Assembly: GCA_963748505.1 (NCBI GenBank)
Contig: CAVVJH010000003.1
Location: 438,960 to 502,959 of the forward strand
Direction of reading: 5' to 3'
Source of the DNA: Candidatus Dormiibacterota bacterium
Lineage (GTDB): Bacteria; Chloroflexota; Dormibacteria; Aeolococcales; Aeolococcaceae
DNA: 64,000 nucleotides
Shown here: positions 12,494 through 20,935 of the stretch, piece by piece
Numbering within the stretch: the first letter of the stretch is position 1
How the letters are laid out: the number at the start of each line of letters is the position of its first letter
Program-made: the position numbers and the translations under genes
The notes under the pieces: generated by a model
What the model saw: the letters and a program-made list of their open reading frames with translations, nothing else
Database searches by the model: none
What the model was told of the DNA's origin: nothing

Positions 12494-13204
12494 TCAGGCC
12501 CCGAGCAGGGTCTGCACGCGTGGGTCGCCGCGGATGGGCGTCAGGTCCGGGTCCTCGAGTGCGAAGGGCACGAGGTCAGGGCTGACGCGCAGCGCTTCGC
12601 GCAACAGCGGGAGCGCCTCCTCGGCGCGTCCGTTGCGCGCGTAGAAACAGGCGAGGTTGTAGTCGGCGATCACCTGCTCTTCGGGGAAGAGTTCGACACC
12701 GATCTGATGCGCCCACAGGGCGACCGCCTCGGCGCCCTCGGGATCGTCATGCTCGCCAGCCCAGGAGGACACGTGCTGGGCGACATGTCCGTGCCCGTTG
12801 CCGGGAATGAGATGCCAGAGCGCTGAACCCTCCGGCCGCTCCCGAAGCAGGTCGTCCGCGCTGCTCGCGGCCACTGCCTCCCTCAATGCTGCGTAGCTCG
12901 TGGTCACGCCGGCACGAACGTCGGCCGCCGTGTCGTCGCGGTGCGCCTCGTAGATCACCGCGTTGCGCGCGTCCAGGTCGCGATCGTCAACCGGTCCCTC
13001 GGGCTCTTCGCCGCGGCCCACGGATTGCAGGATGTGTGCCGCGTGTTCGCGCCAGGCGTTCAGATGCGCAACGTTGTCCTTCGCCGTCCACTGCCCGGCC
13101 ACCGGCGCCGGCTGGTCATCACACAATGCGATCAGCGCCTCTTCCTGGGCGCGCGCACGATCGAGCGATTCGAGCAGGCGGTCGCGGAGCGATGCTTCGG
13201 TCAC
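12494..13204 (-). CDS. DinB-like four-helix-bundle domain protein with C-terminal TPR-like tail
   Basis: WTAKDNVAHLNAWREHAAHIL and downstream His residues fit the DinB_2/MDMPI_N-like fold. C-terminal LACFYARNGRAEEALPLLREAL is TPR-like. Its GTG start overlaps (GTGA) the stop of the upstream nuclease-helicase gene, indicating translational coupling. Confidence 0.6.
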   Translation of the reverse strand: MTEASLRDRLLESLDRARAQEEALIALCDDQPAPVAGQWTAKDNVAHLNAWREHAAHILQSVGRGEEPEGPVDDRDLDARNAVIYEAHRDDTAADVRAGVTTSYAALREAVAASSADDLLRERPEGSALWHLIPGNGHGHVAQHVSSWAGEHDDPEGAEAVALWAHQIGVELFPEEQVIADYNLACFYARNGRAEEALPLLREALRVSPDLVPFALEDPDLTPIRGDPRVQTLLGA

Positions 13205-16200
13205 GCGGGCAGCATAACGGCGCCCACCGCGACATCGCTCCACTCCGCTGCCATCTCGACGTACCGGCAGAGCGCATTGACCAGTCGCATCTGCTCCGGC
13301 GTGTGACAGCGGGCGCGGAGCAACTCCGGTGAGCACACCAGCACGGACACGCCGCGTGCGCGCGACACGGCGACGTTGAGCCGGTTGAGACTGAACAGAA
13401 ACTCGAGGTTTCGCGGCAGGTCCAGGACGCTCGAGGTCGCCATGGAAAAGATGCTGACCGCAGCTTCCTGTCCCTGGAAACGGTCGACAGTGCCGACGCG
13501 TGCGCCGGCTGGCAACGCTTCGACCAGACACGCCACCTGCGCGTTGTAGGGCGCGACCACGACGATGTCGTCGAGCGTCAGGCGGCGCTCCGCACCTGCG
13601 CCGTCTCGCCAGATGGACCCGGTGAGTTGATCGACGATCTCGCGGACCCGCGAGGCTTCCGCCTCGGAGTGCACACGGTCACCGGTATGCACGACCTGCG
13701 CCGTGCGCAGGCCGGTCAGGAGGTTGCCATCGTCGAGCACTGCCTGCGTGGCGCACGAGGGCTCCGAGCCGAGCCTGCCGCCGTAGAACGAACGCGACAC
13801 GAAGGCGCAGACGTCCGGATGCATACGCCAGGTGCGGTCCAGGAGCACGCCGCGGTCGGGCGCGATGGTCACGTCATCACCGAGCAGATGGTCGAGCGCC
13901 GAGACACCGACACCGGGCGGGTGACTTCCCTGCAGCGGCTGCGCAAGCTGGCGTGGGTCGCCGACGAGCACCAGGTGCTGTGCCGCACGTGAGACCGCGA
14001 GCACGTCGGCCAGCGACATCTGGCCCGCCTCGTCGACGATGAGCGTGTCGAAACGCTGCTCGACGCCGGGGCGCGCGAAGTGCCACGAGGTCGCGCCGAC
14101 GACGTCGACGGCAGCATCGTCGAGTGCGGTTTCGACGTCGCCATTCGTCCTCGCCATCCGAATGCCGTCGGTGCCGTCCCCCGATCCGCGCAGATGGAGC
14201 ATCCGCGGCATCCAGCCGCGTGCCGGTGCCAGCTCCTCGACTTTGGCGAGGAGTGTCCGGATCGCGTTGTGCGAGAGCGCCGTCACGCCAATCGGCCCGC
14301 GACCCTGCTGCAGCAAGGCAAGGATCGCTTCCGCAGCGGTATGCGTCTTCCCGGCGCCGGGTGGGCCCTGGATCGGCAGACAGCCCTCGTCGAGCGAGAG
14401 GATGAGCCGGATCGCCGCCGCACTCGCTGACTCGTCCGGCTCGCGGGTCGCACACCCGGCACCGTTGAGCAGTCGCGGCGGTACGCGAAGCAGCAGATCT
14501 CTCGCGGGCCGCCAGTCGCCATCAGCGGCGATGCCGTTGGCGACGATCCACCTGCCGAGGTCGAGCAACAACTCCTGCTGCGCGTTGGTCGGAATCGGCC
14601 GCGAGGGAATCAAGAACCGCACGAGGCCCGAACGCGCATTGGCAGCGGTGCGCGACAAGGTGACCTCCCCGCGGCCCGAGTCGATCTCGATCACCTCCCC
14701 GACGGCGGTTGCGCCGCCGCTCCTGGTCTTCGCTTGCGGATCGAGCGGGTTGTCACCGCTGCTGATGTGGTGCTCCTGAGGCTCGAACCGGTAGCGCTCG
14801 ATAAGACGCCCGTCCTGATCGTGGGAGCCGATCAAGGTGAGGGGTCCGAGCGCGTAGGTGTCGCGCTCGAGTTCTTCGGGAGTCATGGCGAGCTGGTCGA
14901 AGTGACGCCACCATCCAACCTTGCCTTCGCGACGGTGAAACGAGAGCAGGGGCGCGAGCAGCCCGGCCCCACGCTGCACGTCGTTGCGTTGCTCAGGGTC
15001 CTCGGGTATCGATGCGACCAGCGCGTCTGCAACCGCTTGCGTCGCGGCGATCTTCGCGTCCTGCGTTTCCGACGTCTCGTCGATCGTCACCGGACGCTCG
15101 ATCGGGGCGCCACGGAGCGCCTCCTCAGCGACACGACGTGACTCGAGCCAGTCGCGCAAGAGTTCAAGTCGAACTCGCAGTCGCGCTGGTTGTACAGAGC
15201 GATCTCGTCGAGGAGCGCACCGTCGCCGCTGCGGCCATCCTCCCGGCTGACCAGCCAGCGCTCGTACATCACCATGCTCCCCGCGGCATCGGCGATCAAC
15301 TCGACGCGCGGCGGCATGTAGAGCCGCTCCACTTTCTTGAGCGAATACGAGTCGGTGGAGAGGCGTATTCCCTGGCGGACCACGCGGTAGAGATCGACGA
15401 GGATCTCATTGCGCAGTAACCGGTCCACCTCCTCCTCGCGCGTGCCGTGACGGCTCATCAGCCGGCGCAACGCCGTCTTCTCGTAGGCGGCGTAATGGTA
15501 GATGTGCATGTCGGGAAAGCGATTGAGCTTCGCGATGGCGAAATCGACGAAATCCTCGAACGCCTGCCGTTCTCCGGCGTCGTCGTGCCCCCACCAGGCG
15601 GAGTACGTGCCGCCGGCGTCGACTGCCCCAAAGAGATACTCGAGGGGCGTATCGCGCGCAAGGCCGTCGCCCTCCATGTCGAAGAAGACATCTCCCGGCG
15701 ACGGCGCGGGCAGCGAGCACAGTCCGCGTCCCACCTCCCAGGCGTCGAGGAGTTGGTGGCGCGGCGAGCCATCGGAATACGGGCCCTCGTGCTGCAACGC
15801 CGCCTGGGCTCGTAGCTCACGAAACGTCGCCACGTCCATGTGCGCCGGCGGCTCCCGGTCGGGTGACTGCTGCGCGAGCGCGGTCATGGTCGGGATCCCG
15901 TCCGACCGGAGCGCGAGCACCTGTCCGGATCGCATGCGCGCGACCTGGGACAGATGGTCGTCCTCGCGTCGCCGCGCCACGCAGCCTGCGTTGTACCCGC
16001 AGGTGTTGCAGTGAGCGACCGGGTCTGGATAGGTTTCCCCGACCTCGGCGAGCATCGTGGACTCGAAATCGCGCTTGACGGTCGCGTGGTAGGCGGAGAA
16101 CTCATCCAGCCGATACGAATGCTCCACACCGTCGCCGAGGATGACGTGCAGCATCGCCGGTGTCAGCCCTTGCAGGCGCTCGAGATGCGCTGAGTATTCG

Positions 16201-16670
16201 CAGAGCTGCAGCAACGCCTCCGAGCGCACGCGGCGAGCCAGCTTCGCGTCGGCGGCTTCGTACGAGAACGGCCAGCGCGCACTCGGCGTCTCGACCCGGA
16301 TCAGGAAGTCTGCCCGGCCCATCCAGCGGCCGTCGAAGAAGGTGGGCTGGTAGATGACGTCGTAGCCGGCGCTCATCGCCTGGACGGTGTCGGCTTCGAG
16401 CGCGTGCAGCTCGGATGCCGAGCTCGCGAAGCGGTCCTGTTCGTCGTCGAACGCCTTGATGCGAAGGCCGCGAGCTCGGAGGGCCTCGAGATGGCCCTGT
16501 TCGTGCCCGGCGCCGAGCCGGGAGAGCACCTCGCTCAGCGCCGACTCGTCCCGCTCGATGACCTCGCCTCGTGCGGCACGCCGCTTCAGCGTCACCAGAT
16601 GGCCGCAGGCGAGGAAGTCGCAGAGGTCAGTCGCGGTGTAGACGGGCCTGCCGTCCTTGAGGAAGCGCAT
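13201..16670 (-). CDS. Cas4-like RecB-family nuclease (TM0106 family) + RNase H-like domain + SF1B (DNA2/Upf1-like) helicase fusion, about 1150 aa; one apparent frameshift near 15160-15180
   Basis: The N-terminal ORF (16670..15087) reads MRFLKDGRPVYTATDLCDFLACGHLV... with PD-(D/E)xK residues, an HCNTCGYNAGC Cys cluster and an RNase H-like DVFFDMEGD...IYHYAAYEK segment. The C-terminal ORF (15159..13201) carries helicase motifs GPPGAGKTHT, LIVDEAGQMSL and VAVSRARGVSVLV. The two ORFs overlap by 73 nt, and the conserved ...YNQRDC|RxxLELLRDWLE... junction is restored by a 1-nt insertion. Confidence 0.8.
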
Positions 16671-16919
16671 CAGCGCACCATCCTCGCGCGCCGGAGGCTG
16701 CGCTCGCGCGGCAGCGGCAGGCTGAGCTGACGGCTCGACCGCCGGTCCAGCGGCGCTCGATCGGGTGGCGGGCCGGCGATACCGGCGGGCCTGGTCGAGC
16801 GCGTGAATGCCGAACGCGAAGAGGTCCGACCTCGCTGCGAGCAGCGCCTGAGCACGCCCGAGATAGGACCCTTCCGGAGGCGGTGCGGGAGTGACCATGC
16901 GGCGACCATGCCGCGAGGC

Positions 16920-16939
16920 CGCGACAGGTGCCTGTCGCG
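16920..16939. promoter_or_regulatory. Perfect inverted repeat CGCGACAGG-TG-CCTGTCGCG in the divergent intergenic region between the nuclease-helicase operon and the GNAT-WYL operon
   Basis: 9-bp arms with a 2-bp spacer, 14 nt upstream of the GNAT ATG. Candidate operator, possibly for the adjacent WYL regulator. Confidence 0.45.
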
Positions 16940-16952
16940 ATAGGGTGCGCGG

Positions 16953-17477
16953 ATGCCCGTGGAGATCGAAATCCGCCCCGTTCGCGCCGCCGAGTACTCC
17001 GCCGCGGGTGAGGCGACGGCCCTCGCGTATCAGGAGTTCGCAGCGTCGAGATCGCCGGGTTGGCACGCCTACATCGCGAGGATCGCCGACGTCGCCGCCC
17101 GGGCTGATCGGACCACCGTGCTGGTCGCACTCGCCGACGGCGTCATCGCCGGCTCAGCGACACTCGAGCTCGACCAGCGCATGAACGCATCAGCCGAACC
17201 ACTCGCAGGCGACGAAGCGCACCTCCGGATGCTCGGCGTCCACCCGGCCCACCGCGGGCGCGGCATCGGACGGGCCCTGGTGACAGCAAGCGTCGACCTG
17301 GCGCGAGCACGCGGAAAACGCCGCCTCACCCTGGACACGTCGCCGGTGATGCTCGCCGCCCAGAACATGTACGCAGGGATGGGCTTCACCGCGTCAGGCG
17401 CACACCGCTCACCCGACGGCGTCGACCTGCTCGGTTACACACGGGACATCGTGTCAGAGCCCTCGATGAATCGCTAG
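16953..17477 (+). CDS. GNAT-family N-acetyltransferase
   Basis: Acetyl-CoA binding motif RMLGVHPAHRGRGIGRALV. It sits 9 nt upstream of the WYL regulator, so it is probably co-transcribed. Confidence 0.85.
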   Translation: MPVEIEIRPVRAAEYSAAGEATALAYQEFAASRSPGWHAYIARIADVAARADRTTVLVALADGVIAGSATLELDQRMNASAEPLAGDEAHLRMLGVHPAHRGRGIGRALVTASVDLARARGKRRLTLDTSPVMLAAQNMYAGMGFTASGAHRSPDGVDLLGYTRDIVSEPSMNR

Positions 17478-17486
17478 GCTCATCGC

Positions 17487-18484
17487 GTGCCAGGCGACTA
17501 CGAGAAGGGAGAGAAGGAATACCGCGTCATCAAGCTCTTCACGCGCCTCTGCGAGACCGCGGTCGGCTTGTCGACGCGGCAGCTGGCCGATGAGCTGGAG
17601 GTCGATCAGCGAACCATCCAGCGCTACGTCAAGACGCTGCGCGACAGCGCCGGCATCGACATCGAGTCGCGTGGCGGCAAGTGGCGCATCGGCAAGCGCA
17701 GCCTGCTCCCACCGCTGCAGCTTGATCAGTATCAGGCGACCCTGCTCCTGGTGGCGGTTCGCCTGCTGCAGCAGGTCCGCACCGAGCAGGACCCGGCCCT
17801 CATCGGCGCCCTCGCGCAGCTGTCTCGCGCGCTGAGCATCCCGATCGTCAGCGAGTACCTCCTGAGCACGCTGGCCGCAGCCGAGCGACAGCCGGCGAAC
17901 AGCGCGCGCCTGAAGGTGGAGCGCGCGGTCATCGACGGGTTCGTACACCATCGCGAGGTCGAGGTCCGCTACGTCGACGGCCAGGGCCACGAGAGCAAAC
18001 GCGACCTCCGCCCCTACTTCATCCAGCCCACTGCCGAAGGCCGCCACATCTACGTGCTCGCTCTCGACTCGGTCTCACGGGAGGTGCGGTCACTGCGTCT
18101 CGATCGCATCCGCGACGCACGCGTCCTGCCGACGACGTTCACGGTTCCCGAGAGCTTCGACATCGACGCCGCCCTCGGCGCCTCGTGGGGATCTGGCAGG
18201 GTCAGGGTGGCGATCGAATCGTCCTGCGCTTTCCCGCCGCGGTGCGTCAGTGGGTGGACGAGAGCCCGTGGCCGCCGAAGACCAAGCGCAGGGATCTGCC
18301 CGACGGCAGCCTCGAGGTCCGGCTCGAGGTGTCCGGCGAAGCCGAGATGCGTCCCTGGCTGCTCCGATGGGGTGAGAACGTCGAGGTCATCGCGCCCGAA
18401 TCGCTGCGGACCTTCATGGCCCAGACCCACGCGGCAGCGGCGGCACTGTACGCGTCGAATCACGCCGATCGGGGTAGAAAATAG
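17487..18484 (+). CDS. WYL-domain transcriptional regulator (HTH-WYL-WCX), apparent -1 frameshift in a G-run at about 18185
   Basis: N-terminal HTH (LSTRQLADELEVDQRTIQRYVKTL), a WYL region (VEVRYVDGQGHESKRDLRPYFIQPTAEGRHIYVLALDS...LRLDRI), and a WCX domain read in the next frame (IWQGQGGDRIVLRFPAAVRQWVDESPWPP...LLRWGENVEVIAPESLRTFM). The frame switch falls at tcgtGGGGatc. Confidence 0.8.
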
Positions 18485-18488
18485 CCAT

Positions 18489-18890
18489 ATGGACGAGAAG
18501 ATCAAACTCACCGACGACGAATGGCGCCAGAAGCTGACCCCGGAACAGTTCAACGTGCTCCGTAAGGCGAGCACCGAGCGCGCATTCACCGGACAGTACG
18601 TGCACGTGGACGACAAGGGCGTCTATCACTGCGCGGGCTGTGGCGCCGAGCTCTTCAACTCCGACACCAAATTCAACTCCGGCACCGGCTGGCCGAGCTT
18701 CTACGAGCCGATTTTCGCGGGTGCGGTTGAGAAGCACCGCGACTGGAGCATGGGGCTCCCGCGCACGGAGATTCGCTGCGCAACCTGCGGCGGCCACCTG
18801 GGGCATGTGTTCAACGACGGACCGCAGCCCACCGGCGAGCGCTACTGCATGAACTCCTGCGCGCTCAAGCTGGAAAAGACCCCCAGCTGA
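18489..18890 (+). CDS. msrB: Peptide-methionine (R)-S-oxide reductase
   Basis: CxxC...CxxC zinc site (CAGCGAELF...CATCGGHLGHVF) and the catalytic RYCMNS motif. Confidence 0.9.
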   Translation: MDEKIKLTDDEWRQKLTPEQFNVLRKASTERAFTGQYVHVDDKGVYHCAGCGAELFNSDTKFNSGTGWPSFYEPIFAGAVEKHRDWSMGLPRTEIRCATCGGHLGHVFNDGPQPTGERYCMNSCALKLEKTPS

Positions 18891-20935
18891 TCACGCAGCT
18901 GGAGCCCTCGCCCAGGGCTCGCGCTGTCCTCGAACAGACCTTCGGCTTTGCCGACTTCCGCCCCGGACAGGCCGACGTCATCGCCGCGGCGGAGGCGCAG
19001 TCGGACGTCCTCTTCGTCGCCCCGACGGGCTCCGGCAAGAGCATCGCCTACTGGGTGCCGGGGGTTGTCGGCGGCGGGCTGACCCTGGTCGTGTCACCGC
19101 TCATCGCGCTGATGGTCGATCAGGTCGCCCGTCTCAACGCGTTGGGCATTCCGGCCGCCTGCCTGCACAGTCAGGTGAGCGCCGCGACGCGGGCGGAGGC
19201 CATGCGTGCCGCCGTGGCGGGCGAGTTGCGGTTTCTCTACCTCGCGCCGGAGCGGATCGGCGCGCCCGGCGTGCTCGACAGCCTCGGCAAGCTCACGGTC
19301 GCGCGCTTCGTCGTTGACGAGGCGCATTGCATCTCGAGCTGGGGGCACGACTTCCGCCCCGACTACCGTCGCCTCGGGGACGCGATCACGGCCTGCGGCC
19401 GGCCGCCGGTCGGCGCGTTCACCGCGACCGCGACGCCGCGGGTTCGACAGGACATCGCTGCGAGCCTCGGGCTGCGCAGCCCCGTCGAGCGCGTCAGCGG
19501 ATTCGTGCGCGAGAACTTGACGATGTCCGTGGTGCGCTGCCGCGGTGCGGCGGAGAAACGCAGCGCACTCGCGGGACTGGTCCGTCGCGGCAGTGGCCGC
19601 GCACTCATCTACTGCGGCAGCCGCAAGACGACGGAGAGCGTGACCGAGACGCTCTCCGTGGCGGGCGTATCCGTCGCCGCGTACCACGGAGCGCTCGACG
19701 GCGACACGCGGCAGCGCGTTTACGAGCGCTACGCGTCAGGCGCTCTGCACGTCATCGCAGCCACCTCGGCGTTCGGGATGGGAGTCGACTTTCCGGATAT
19801 CCGCCGCGTCATTCATCACGATTTCCCCGGGAGCATCGAGGAGTACTACCAGCAGGCGGGGCGAGCGGGACGAGACGGCGAGCCGTCCGAATGCATCCTG
19901 CTCTACAGCGCCGCGGATCGACAGCTGCAGGAGTTCTTCATCGAGCAGGCATTCCCGGAGCGCGACACGGTCCGTTCCGTGTATCGCGAGTTGTTGCGCG
20001 AGGGCAGCGATGCCATCGATGACTGGGACCGTCGCGGCGTCGCTGCCAATGCAGCGCGTGCCGCGCTGGACCTTCTCCGCCGCGCCGGCGTGATCCAAAC
20101 CGACGGCAGCATCCGGCGGCTGACCGGCGCGCCGGTCGACTTCGACGAGCAGGCCCTGCTCAAGGCCAACGCCTACGCGCGCGTCAACCAGGTGATGGAC
20201 TACGCGGGCTTTCGCGGCTGCCGCCATGCGCGCATCGCTGATTATTTCGGCGAGGAGGGCGTCGCGAGGACCTGCCACGCCTGCGACAACTGCCTCGACG
20301 AGAACCGCACGGCCCTGGTGGTCGTCGATCCGGCCGATGTCGCCGCAGTGCTCGCCTGCGTGGCGAGATTCGACGGCCACCTCGGCGGCGTCCGGCTCGC
20401 GTCGATCCTTCGCGGCACCACCGACACCTGGACATCGTCGCGTCAGTGGGTCACCGAGCTGGCGTTTTTCGGCGCGCTGCGCACGTGGGACCTGGAGCGG
20501 ATTCGCGATCTGCTCGAGCGGCTTGTCGAAGTCGGCTGCGTCAGCCGCGGGCACGGCGAAAAGCCCACCCTCGGTATCACCCAACGCGGCAGCGCGGTGC
20601 TGCGCGGCGACGAGGATGTCGAAGTGGATATCGCCGTACTGTCGCGACGCCCGCAGCCGGCAGGTCGCGTCAAGGGTTCCGGCGGCAGCGCACTCGACAG
20701 CGATGCCAGCGACCTGGTCCGCGCGCGCTTCGAGGCGCTGCGAGGCTGGCGCCTCGAAGTGGCACGTCGTGCCCAGGTACCGCCATACGTCGTCTTTCAC
20801 GACCGCACGCTCGCGGAGATTGCGCAGCGACGGCCGGGTTCGATGGCGGCGCTGGGAACCATCGCCGGAATCGGACCCGCAAAGCTGGACCGTTACGGCG
20901 AGCTGGTCCTCACCGTCCTCCGCGACGGCGACTGA
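18887..20935 (+). CDS. recQ: RecQ-family ATP-dependent DNA helicase (5' end uncertain: no canonical start codon upstream of the conserved N-terminus)
   Basis: In-frame from about 18887: LEQTFGFADFRPGQADVIAAAEAQSDVLFVAPTGSGKSIAYWVPG (motif 0 and Walker A), DEAHCISSWGHDFRPDY, a Zn-binding CxxC...C, RQC, and a C-terminal HRDC (LRGWRLEVARRAQVPPYVVFHDRTLAEIA). The ORF-track start (GTG 19055) would delete Walker A. The open frame begins after a TGA at 18728 and contains only CTG/ATC candidates. Confidence 0.75.
   Translation: MITQLEPSPRARAVLEQTFGFADFRPGQADVIAAAEAQSDVLFVAPTGSGKSIAYWVPGVVGGGLTLVVSPLIALMVDQVARLNALGIPAACLHSQVSAATRAEAMRAAVAGELRFLYLAPERIGAPGVLDSLGKLTVARFVVDEAHCISSWGHDFRPDYRRLGDAITACGRPPVGAFTATATPRVRQDIAASLGLRSPVERVSGFVRENLTMSVVRCRGAAEKRSALAGLVRRGSGRALIYCGSRKTTESVTETLSVAGVSVAAYHGALDGDTRQRVYERYASGALHVIAATSAFGMGVDFPDIRRVIHHDFPGSIEEYYQQAGRAGRDGEPSECILLYSAADRQLQEFFIEQAFPERDTVRSVYRELLREGSDAIDDWDRRGVAANAARAALDLLRRAGVIQTDGSIRRLTGAPVDFDEQALLKANAYARVNQVMDYAGFRGCRHARIADYFGEEGVARTCHACDNCLDENRTALVVVDPADVAAVLACVARFDGHLGGVRLASILRGTTDTWTSSRQWVTELAFFGALRTWDLERIRDLLERLVEVGCVSRGHGEKPTLGITQRGSAVLRGDEDVEVDIAVLSRRPQPAGRVKGSGGSALDSDASDLVRARFEALRGWRLEVARRAQVPPYVVFHDRTLAEIAQRRPGSMAALGTIAGIGPAKLDRYGELVLTVLRDGD

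Follow-up and report, generated by a model that had tools for sequence, protein, structure and literature searches.

The WYL-domain regulator encoded in this Dormibacterota DNA very likely has a palindromic operator of its own, and sequence comparison places that operator in a short gap between two divergent transcription units. The stretch analyzed, which we call the window, is 64,000 nucleotides long and has a GC content of 68%. The original prediction had reported a perfect 9-2-9 palindrome upstream of a GNAT acetyltransferase gene, and this palindrome is present with perfect arms (Table 1); in the window its core reads CGACAG-GTGC-CTGTCG. The motif CGACA-N6-TGTCGC was kept in 37 of 37 loci that carry an orthologous WYL regulator. 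Our reading is built on four observations, namely, the conservation of the site, its geometry, the family of the neighboring regulator, and the retention of that protein's DNA-reading residues.

The control region had been taken to span 282 bp (16671-16952), with a nuclease-helicase gene heading the leftward unit. Most of that region turned out to be a conserved small gene that had gone unnoticed and that precedes the nuclease-helicase gene. Since 16670-16898 is a gene, the real intergenic gap is 16899-16952, or 54 bp. In relatives, the small open reading frame (ORF) starts at a conserved ATG (TCCATG on the plus strand) 22 to 23 nt to the left of the site. Pairwise differences at its three codon positions were 0.29, 0.25, and 0.46, which is a coding pattern. 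In the window, the ORF begins at 16898 (MVTPAPPPEGSYLGRAQALLAARSDLF), a 1-nt insertion near 16816 shifts its frame, and the conserved C terminus, which ends in RQLSLPLPRERSLRRARMVR before the stop codon, is read in another frame, ending at 16670. The small-ORF TGA overlaps the ATG of the nuclease-helicase gene as TGATG, and the small gene is translationally coupled to it. Because the conserved upstream peptide shares the nuclease's frame in the window, it could be taken for an extension of that protein's N terminus; this reading was rejected, since relatives encode the peptide in an ORF of its own that terminates at TGATG.

Table 1. Features of the divergent locus, in window coordinates
Feature	Coordinates	Strand	Remarks
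DinB_2/DUF1706-like + TPR protein	12494-13204	minus	GTG start overlaps helicase stop as GTGA
TM0106-type RecB-like nuclease + SF1 helicase fusion	13201-16670	minus	RNase_H_2/TIGR03491, E 3e-75
Small ORF	16670-16898	minus	ATG 16898-16896; TGA stop 16672-16670; 64-89 aa in relatives
QLSLPL codons	16712-16729	minus	Sole segment of the small protein kept across all lineages
Tandem 11-mer GACCATGCGGC/GACCATGCCGC	16893-16914	unstranded	10/11 bases identical
-10-like hexamer CATGGT (nAnnnT)	16905-16910	minus	10 nt downstream of TGTCGC; 6 nt before small-ORF ATG
Palindrome CGCGACAGG-TG-CCTGTCGCG	16920-16939	unstranded	Perfect 9-nt arms, 2-nt center; proposed WYL operator
Left half-site GCGACA	16921-16926		Reads TGTCGC on minus strand; ~-28..-23 of inferred small-ORF promoter; CGACA invariant in 31 close sequences
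Right half-site TGTCGC	16933-16938		~-20..-15 of inferred GNAT promoter; TGTCGCG invariant in 31 close sequences
-10-like hexamer TAGGGT (TAnnnT)	16941-16946	plus	6 nt before GNAT ATG; abuts palindrome
GNAT acetyltransferase	16953-17477	plus	First rightward gene; Pfam Acetyltransf_1, E 1e-18
wHTH-WYL-WCX regulator, DriD/PafBC family	17487-18484	plus	Pfam HTH_11, WYL, WCX; proposed palindrome binder
MsrB (methionine-R-sulfoxide reductase)	18489-18890	plus	Starts 4 nt after WYL stop

Farther to the left, the DinB-like gene is probably the third and last gene of the leftward operon; locus L031 has a DinB_2 gene at the same position. On the rightward side, the N terminus of the GNAT protein is conserved from the start codon on, and a recQ gene follows msrB. 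Across close and distant lineages, msrB lies directly or shortly downstream of the WYL gene in all 37 loci, a neighborhood that hints at a tie between the regulator and the repair of oxidative damage.

The start of recQ drew our attention separately. At ~18890, a conserved N terminus that includes the Walker A motif precedes the first ATG, GTG, or TTG codon. RecQ begins with ATG (MPLEPS...) in 25 loci. In the window and in L013, L014, L018, L030, and L001, the only near-cognate candidates are ATC codons, joined by CTG in the window and L001, and these candidates overlap or abut the MsrB stop codon. This pattern in the sequences suggests that recQ has a noncanonical start codon in the window and these five loci.

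Judged by its shape, the palindrome is unexceptional. It had been ranked first among the dyad symmetries of the window, but a perfect 10-7-10 inverted repeat within the recQ coding region (CGGAGAGCGT-GACCGAG-ACGCTCTCCG, 19632-19658) has longer arms. Perfect inverted repeats with arms of at least 9 nt and loops of at most 8 nt number 2 in the window and 8.4 +/- 3.5 in dinucleotide shuffles, for which the expectation is ~0.04 per 282 bp. The tandem repeat that had been noted just upstream is likewise present, and tandem 11-mers with at least 10/11 identity occur once in the window and 1.1 times in shuffles. Because the counts of both the palindrome and the tandem repeat are within chance, their significance rests on conservation.

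We therefore looked at that conservation. Scanning the WYL protein, with its reading frame repaired, against reference genomes gave 30 close loci at 73 to 91% protein identity, 29 of them labeled Candidatus Dormibacterota and 1 labeled Saccharimonadales. L001 is the nearest of these, with 86% DNA identity to the window. Seven distant homologues (55 to 64% identity in the WYL protein) were added through the contigs that encode them. Absence of the palindrome from orthologous intergenic regions would have refuted the original prediction; the core was found there in 37/37 loci. GCGACA-N6-TGTCGC occurred as a single copy at a constant place in each of the 30 close loci, with an ACGACA variant in 4 of them, and all seven distant loci retained the site. 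In every one of the 37 WYL-anchored loci, the site lay no more than ~2 kb from the WYL gene.

An alignment of 84 columns and 31 close sequences located the fixed positions. Invariant columns comprised CGACA, TGTCGCG, the TA...T directly downstream, and the GNAT start codon, together with a leftmost CA.G and with an A and a T that lie five bases apart. The flanking intergenic columns were variable, while the core, the A and T positions of both -10-like hexamers, and both start codons were fixed. Within the palindrome, the six central bases were free to vary, as was the outermost pair: five pairs were constant, the outermost pair held in 4/31 sequences, and the innermost held in 11/31 (7 G-C, 2 A-U, and 2 G-U). 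Since these outer and inner pairs are broken in most relatives, perfect 9-2-9 symmetry is confined to the window and L001. A pair-count test of the 31 sequences for compensatory change in the palindrome pairs found none.

A search for further copies of the site gave only chance-level near matches in the window and, in 480 kb of related loci, one match, which lies in a coding region of L036; no second operator copy was found, and no wider regulon emerged.

With invariant half-sites, a spacing fixed across 37 loci, and no hairpin covariation, the palindrome behaves as a protein operator, in line with the role first proposed for it. The WYL protein is the best candidate binder, again as had been suggested. 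Its best match among solved structures was DriD (8tp8, E 5e-14), followed by PafC (E 6e-9). Two arginines, R42 and R46, were invariant in Dormibacteria WYL proteins and align with Arg37 and Arg41 of DriD. The window has only one WYL gene, and the distant loci likewise have a single one; as the regulator is encoded by a single gene, it is presumably a homodimer.

The bases around the palindrome suggest where the two divergent promoters lie. The minus strand reads TGTCGC-GGCCTCGCGG-CATGGT-CGCCGC-ATG, that is, TGTCGC-N10-nAnnnT-N6-ATG, and the seven distant loci all had TGTCGC-N10-nAnnnT-N6/7 followed by ATG or GTG. Columns A19 and T23 of the alignment, both invariant, correspond to T(-7) and A(-11) of this hexamer, whose first base was C or G and never T. 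CATGGT is also the second unit of the tandem repeat. The original prediction had treated the tandem GACCATGC motif as an element in its own right, but its conserved positions are the small-ORF start codon (CAT on the plus strand) and positions 2 and 6 of the hexamer. The tandem repeat is therefore not a separate element.

On the plus strand, the sequence reads TGTCGCG(A)-TAGGGT-N6-ATG. The T, A, and final T of this hexamer were invariant, and it lay 6 to 8 nt before the start codon in all GNAT-type loci; orthologues had TA[GC]GGT or TATCGT, with GTG or ATG 6 to 8 nt farther on. Given that TAGGGT lies 6 nt before the GNAT ATG, the GNAT mRNA is probably leaderless. Leaderless mRNAs with a TANNNT -10 element are a known actinobacterial architecture. 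In a set comprising the window and loci L013, L018, and L031 to L037, TANNNT occurred 6 to 8 nt before a candidate ATG or GTG in 34 cases among ~140 genes (about a quarter of genes), compared with ~1 case per other offset, which suggests that Dormibacterota commonly have leaderless mRNAs whose -10 element resembles the actinobacterial one. A scan for a consensus sigma-70 -35/-10 pair and for a terminator found none.

From conservation and spacing, we infer transcription start sites at 16953 for the rightward unit and 16898 for the leftward unit. With these starts, the palindrome would span about -33 to -14 of the rightward promoter and about -41 to -22 of the leftward one, with the proximal half-site of the latter at -28 to -23. 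The putative -10 elements of both units flank the site in this clade.

Another damage-response operator was set aside. The LexA box (Cheo box or actinobacterial SOS box) is a palindrome of the GAAC-N4-GTTC type, and direct reading of 16899-16952 against this consensus agreed with the earlier statement that there is no match.

Among the closest known systems is DriD, a homodimer with the consensus ATACGAC(X)7GTCGTAT and the crystallized site ATACGACAGTTACTGTCGTAT (PMC10853764), in which Arg37 and Arg41 read guanines. DriD boxes lie across the -35 position, and their distance to the -10 element is constant (PMC13004042); at the bidirectional driD/CCNA_03891 promoter of Caulobacter crescentus, the DriD box activates the divergent operon and not driD. 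The locus resembles this system in having a wHTH-WYL-WCX regulator with both base-reading arginine equivalents and palindromic CGAC(AG)/(CT)GTCG half-sites. The CGxC/GxCG half-sites that characterize DriD appear as CGAC and GTCG, which were invariant in the 31 close and 7 distant sequences. Placement also agrees: the site lies in a divergent promoter next to the regulator gene, 13 nt before the start of the GNAT-WYL operon, it covers the presumed -35 position, and its N10 interval to the putative minus-strand -10 hexamer is fixed. The spacer does not agree, however. DriD boxes have an AT-rich spacer of 7 nt (6 to 7 nt), whereas the spacer here is 8 nt in every locus and GC rich in the window (AGGTGCCT). 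The two systems also differ in host, an alphaproteobacterium as opposed to Dormibacterota; in that transcripts here appear leaderless, with the regulator second in a GNAT-WYL-MsrB unit; and in their targets, which here are the small QLSLPL protein and the nuclease-helicase.

The leftward promoter also resembles those of PafBC, which recognizes tGTCgg(N10)tA(N3)T, with the upstream element at -23 to -28 and no -35 element (PMC8635444). The minus strand has the same element and the same N10 interval in TGTCGC-N10-nAnnnT, it lacks a -35 element, and its context is one of DNA repair; the hexamer A and final T are kept, and the first base is C or G. It had been stated that the palindrome does not match the spacing of this motif, known as RecA-NDp. 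That is true of the plus strand, TGTCGCGA-TAGGGT, but not of the minus strand, where TGTCGC-N10-CATGGT has exactly this spacing. PafBC is a heterodimer that binds a nonpalindromic site, and only together with RNA polymerase, whereas this locus has a single WYL gene and a palindrome of two half-sites.

A third relative is SiwR of Mycobacterium smegmatis, a homodimeric WYL activator with a ~19-bp palindrome between the -10 and -35 positions (PMC10693628). Its site lies in a divergent gap of ~60 bp, and its targets include DinB-family genes (PMC10693628). The corresponding values here are a 20-bp palindrome, about -33 to -14 of the inferred GNAT promoter, and a 54-bp gap, and a DinB_2-like gene ends the leftward operon. 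The half-sites here are DriD-like, however, and the main targets differ. The GGA triplet that SiwR sites have at -26 is absent; the window has CAGGTG there, and the inner positions vary among orthologues. Finally, CapW-type wHTH-WYL-WCX proteins are described as single-stranded DNA (ssDNA)-sensing repressors (PMC11662680). The CapW/BrxR proteins share with this locus the domain architecture and palindromes in their own promoter regions, along with ssDNA sensing. They repress phage defense operons, in contrast to the repair-type neighbors and the activator-class promoter geometry seen here.

These comparisons lead us to the following model. A WYL homodimer would bind the palindrome, each recognition helix reading one CGAC/GTCG half-site through the two arginines. 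The site would replace the -35 element in the minus-strand promoter TGTCGC-N10-nAnnnT-N6/7-ATG, and this promoter would drive a leaderless operon for the small QLSLPL protein, the RecB-like nuclease/SF1 helicase, and the DinB-like protein. If the analogy with DriD and PafBC holds, ssDNA derived from damage would bind the WYL domain, and the ssDNA-bound regulator would recruit RNA polymerase to a promoter that is weak on its own. In this clade, the site would also abut the TAGGGT -10 element of the divergent, leaderless GNAT-WYL-MsrB operon; as the site adjoins both promoters, one bound dimer would sit in both. We hold the full mechanism, including activation of the leftward promoter by the WYL regulator, to be the probable one, with less assurance than we attach to the operator itself. 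The GC-rich center, the 8-nt spacer, and the lack of a T-initial minus-strand hexamer are counterpoints to a DriD/PafBC activator model.

Could the palindrome be something other than a site for an activator? At this composition, ~8 perfect inverted repeats with 9-bp arms are expected per 64 kb, so a palindrome without function might be met by chance; yet the core is invariant in 37 loci whose regulators are only 55 to 91% identical, while adjacent noncoding bases vary, and this conservation effectively refutes chance, to which we give next to no weight. A hairpin would be another way to use the symmetry: as a cruciform, or as a terminator or stabilizer of an RNA, for instance that of the yceI gene that some relatives have upstream. 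In its favor, an 8-bp stem can be formed by the window sequence, and L034, L036, and L037 have a yceI gene in the same orientation a short way upstream of the site. Against this, there is no covariation, the pairs beside the invariant core are lost with no compensating change, the 54-nt gap has an unexceptional folding energy (z = -1.6), there is no T-run or terminator-like site at the palindrome, and the palindrome would be untranscribed in the window if the inferred start sites are right. A role as a hairpin is thus very improbable, and a structured RNA or intrinsic terminator was rejected as a candidate for want of covariation, a T-run, and a family in Rfam, where a search gave no match.

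If the palindrome is a protein-binding site, the protein might be some other factor, such as a global regulator or MarR, whose gene lies within 1 to 2 kb of the site in L034, L036, and L037. We consider this improbable: the site is near the WYL gene in 37/37 WYL-anchored loci, window-type loci lack MarR, the half-sites agree with the ones that the closest characterized WYL protein recognizes, and the residues that would read them are invariant. A more serious contender has the WYL dimer itself working in the manner of CapW/BrxR, as a repressor that blocks one or both promoters until ssDNA releases it. The ssDNA-sensing repression described for CapW-type proteins is in keeping with this, as is the plus strand, where the site touches the consensus-like TAGGGT and a bound protein can occlude RNA polymerase; the placement there, at about -33 to -14, could equally serve repression. 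SiwR, however, activates from the same position between -10 and -35, the closest sequence relatives, DriD and PafC, are activators, and 37/37 loci keep the PafBC-type -26 spacing with a weak nAnnnT and no -35 element, as is typical of activator-dependent promoters. Repression therefore seems to us rather unlikely, and activation by the WYL regulator is the reading with which we continue.

The distant loci show which part of the arrangement is conserved. In L033, L034, L036, and L037, the site is flanked by neither the GNAT gene nor the nuclease-helicase gene, and its plus side lacks a TAnnnT; the site itself, the small ORF, and the minus-strand hexamer at its usual spacing persist. What is conserved as a unit is therefore the operator together with the small-ORF promoter, and joint use of the site by the GNAT-WYL promoter is a trait of the window's clade. 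The idea of an operator common to both divergent units thus holds within that clade, with the amendment that the small ORF is the lead gene on the left. In the lineage of the four distant loci, the operator and small ORF adjoin genes for Lhr helicase, DinB/MDMPI_N, YceI, and MarR; in L037 (3794-4100), the small ORF is directly upstream of the Lhr gene on the same strand.

The small ORF gave no family match in Pfam or NCBIfam. A profile search collected 71 homologue clusters, all of them "hypothetical" or nameless; those with taxon labels were all Dormibacteria, except for one Deferrimicrobium record. In an alignment of 20 diverse family members, the Q, L, L, and P of QLxLP were invariant. Across all lineages, one tyrosine and QLxLP were invariant, and the last residue of the motif was L, M, or I (QLxLP[LMI]). 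QLSLPL is the beta-clamp-binding hexapeptide of Escherichia coli Hda (PMC3836487) and has been used as a "strong" clamp binder (PMC4478557). The small protein carries this Hda-type form of the QLxLxL hexapeptide and from its motif is predicted to bind the clamp. We offer tentatively, and with more doubt than belief, the proposal that the small protein occupies the beta sliding clamp as a WYL-controlled effector and that its promoter looks like an evolutionary intermediate between the DriD and PafBC types, a DriD-type palindrome having its proximal half-site exactly at the -26 position of PafBC. If this is true, a damage-inducible small protein would pause replication or would tether the co-translated nuclease-helicase (Lhr in another lineage) to the clamps of damaged forks. 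It would then be an undescribed effector of an SOS-independent damage response.

The window copy of this module carries lesions. Relative to L001 and all other relatives, it has uncompensated indels at ~16816 in the small ORF; at ~15163-15172 in the nuclease-helicase gene, which is a single ORF of 1139 to 1167 aa in relatives and is split by this frameshift in the window; and at 18191 in the WYL gene, where a 1-nt deletion puts the WCX domain in another frame. The other genes compared within 11.5 kb had compensated indels only. By a rough estimate, such clustering within the module has a probability of ~0.07, which is not statistically decisive. The three indels reflect either assembly error or real decay of the module, and in this genome the circuit may not be functional.

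A literature search returned no report on the regulation of DNA repair in Dormibacterota, a phylum of uncultured soil bacteria. The locus probably adds a switch of the DriD/PafBC/SiwR class in this phylum, and it would extend to it the model in which WYL regulators of that kind govern the response to DNA damage. It would also link the palindromic DriD box with the half-site element of PafBC through a common sequence and spacing. The circuit it outlines is sharply defined, with a 20-bp site, a candidate regulator, two inferred leaderless starts, and few target genes. Its most interesting lead is the unannotated protein with the clamp-binding motif, which points to the core regulated product.
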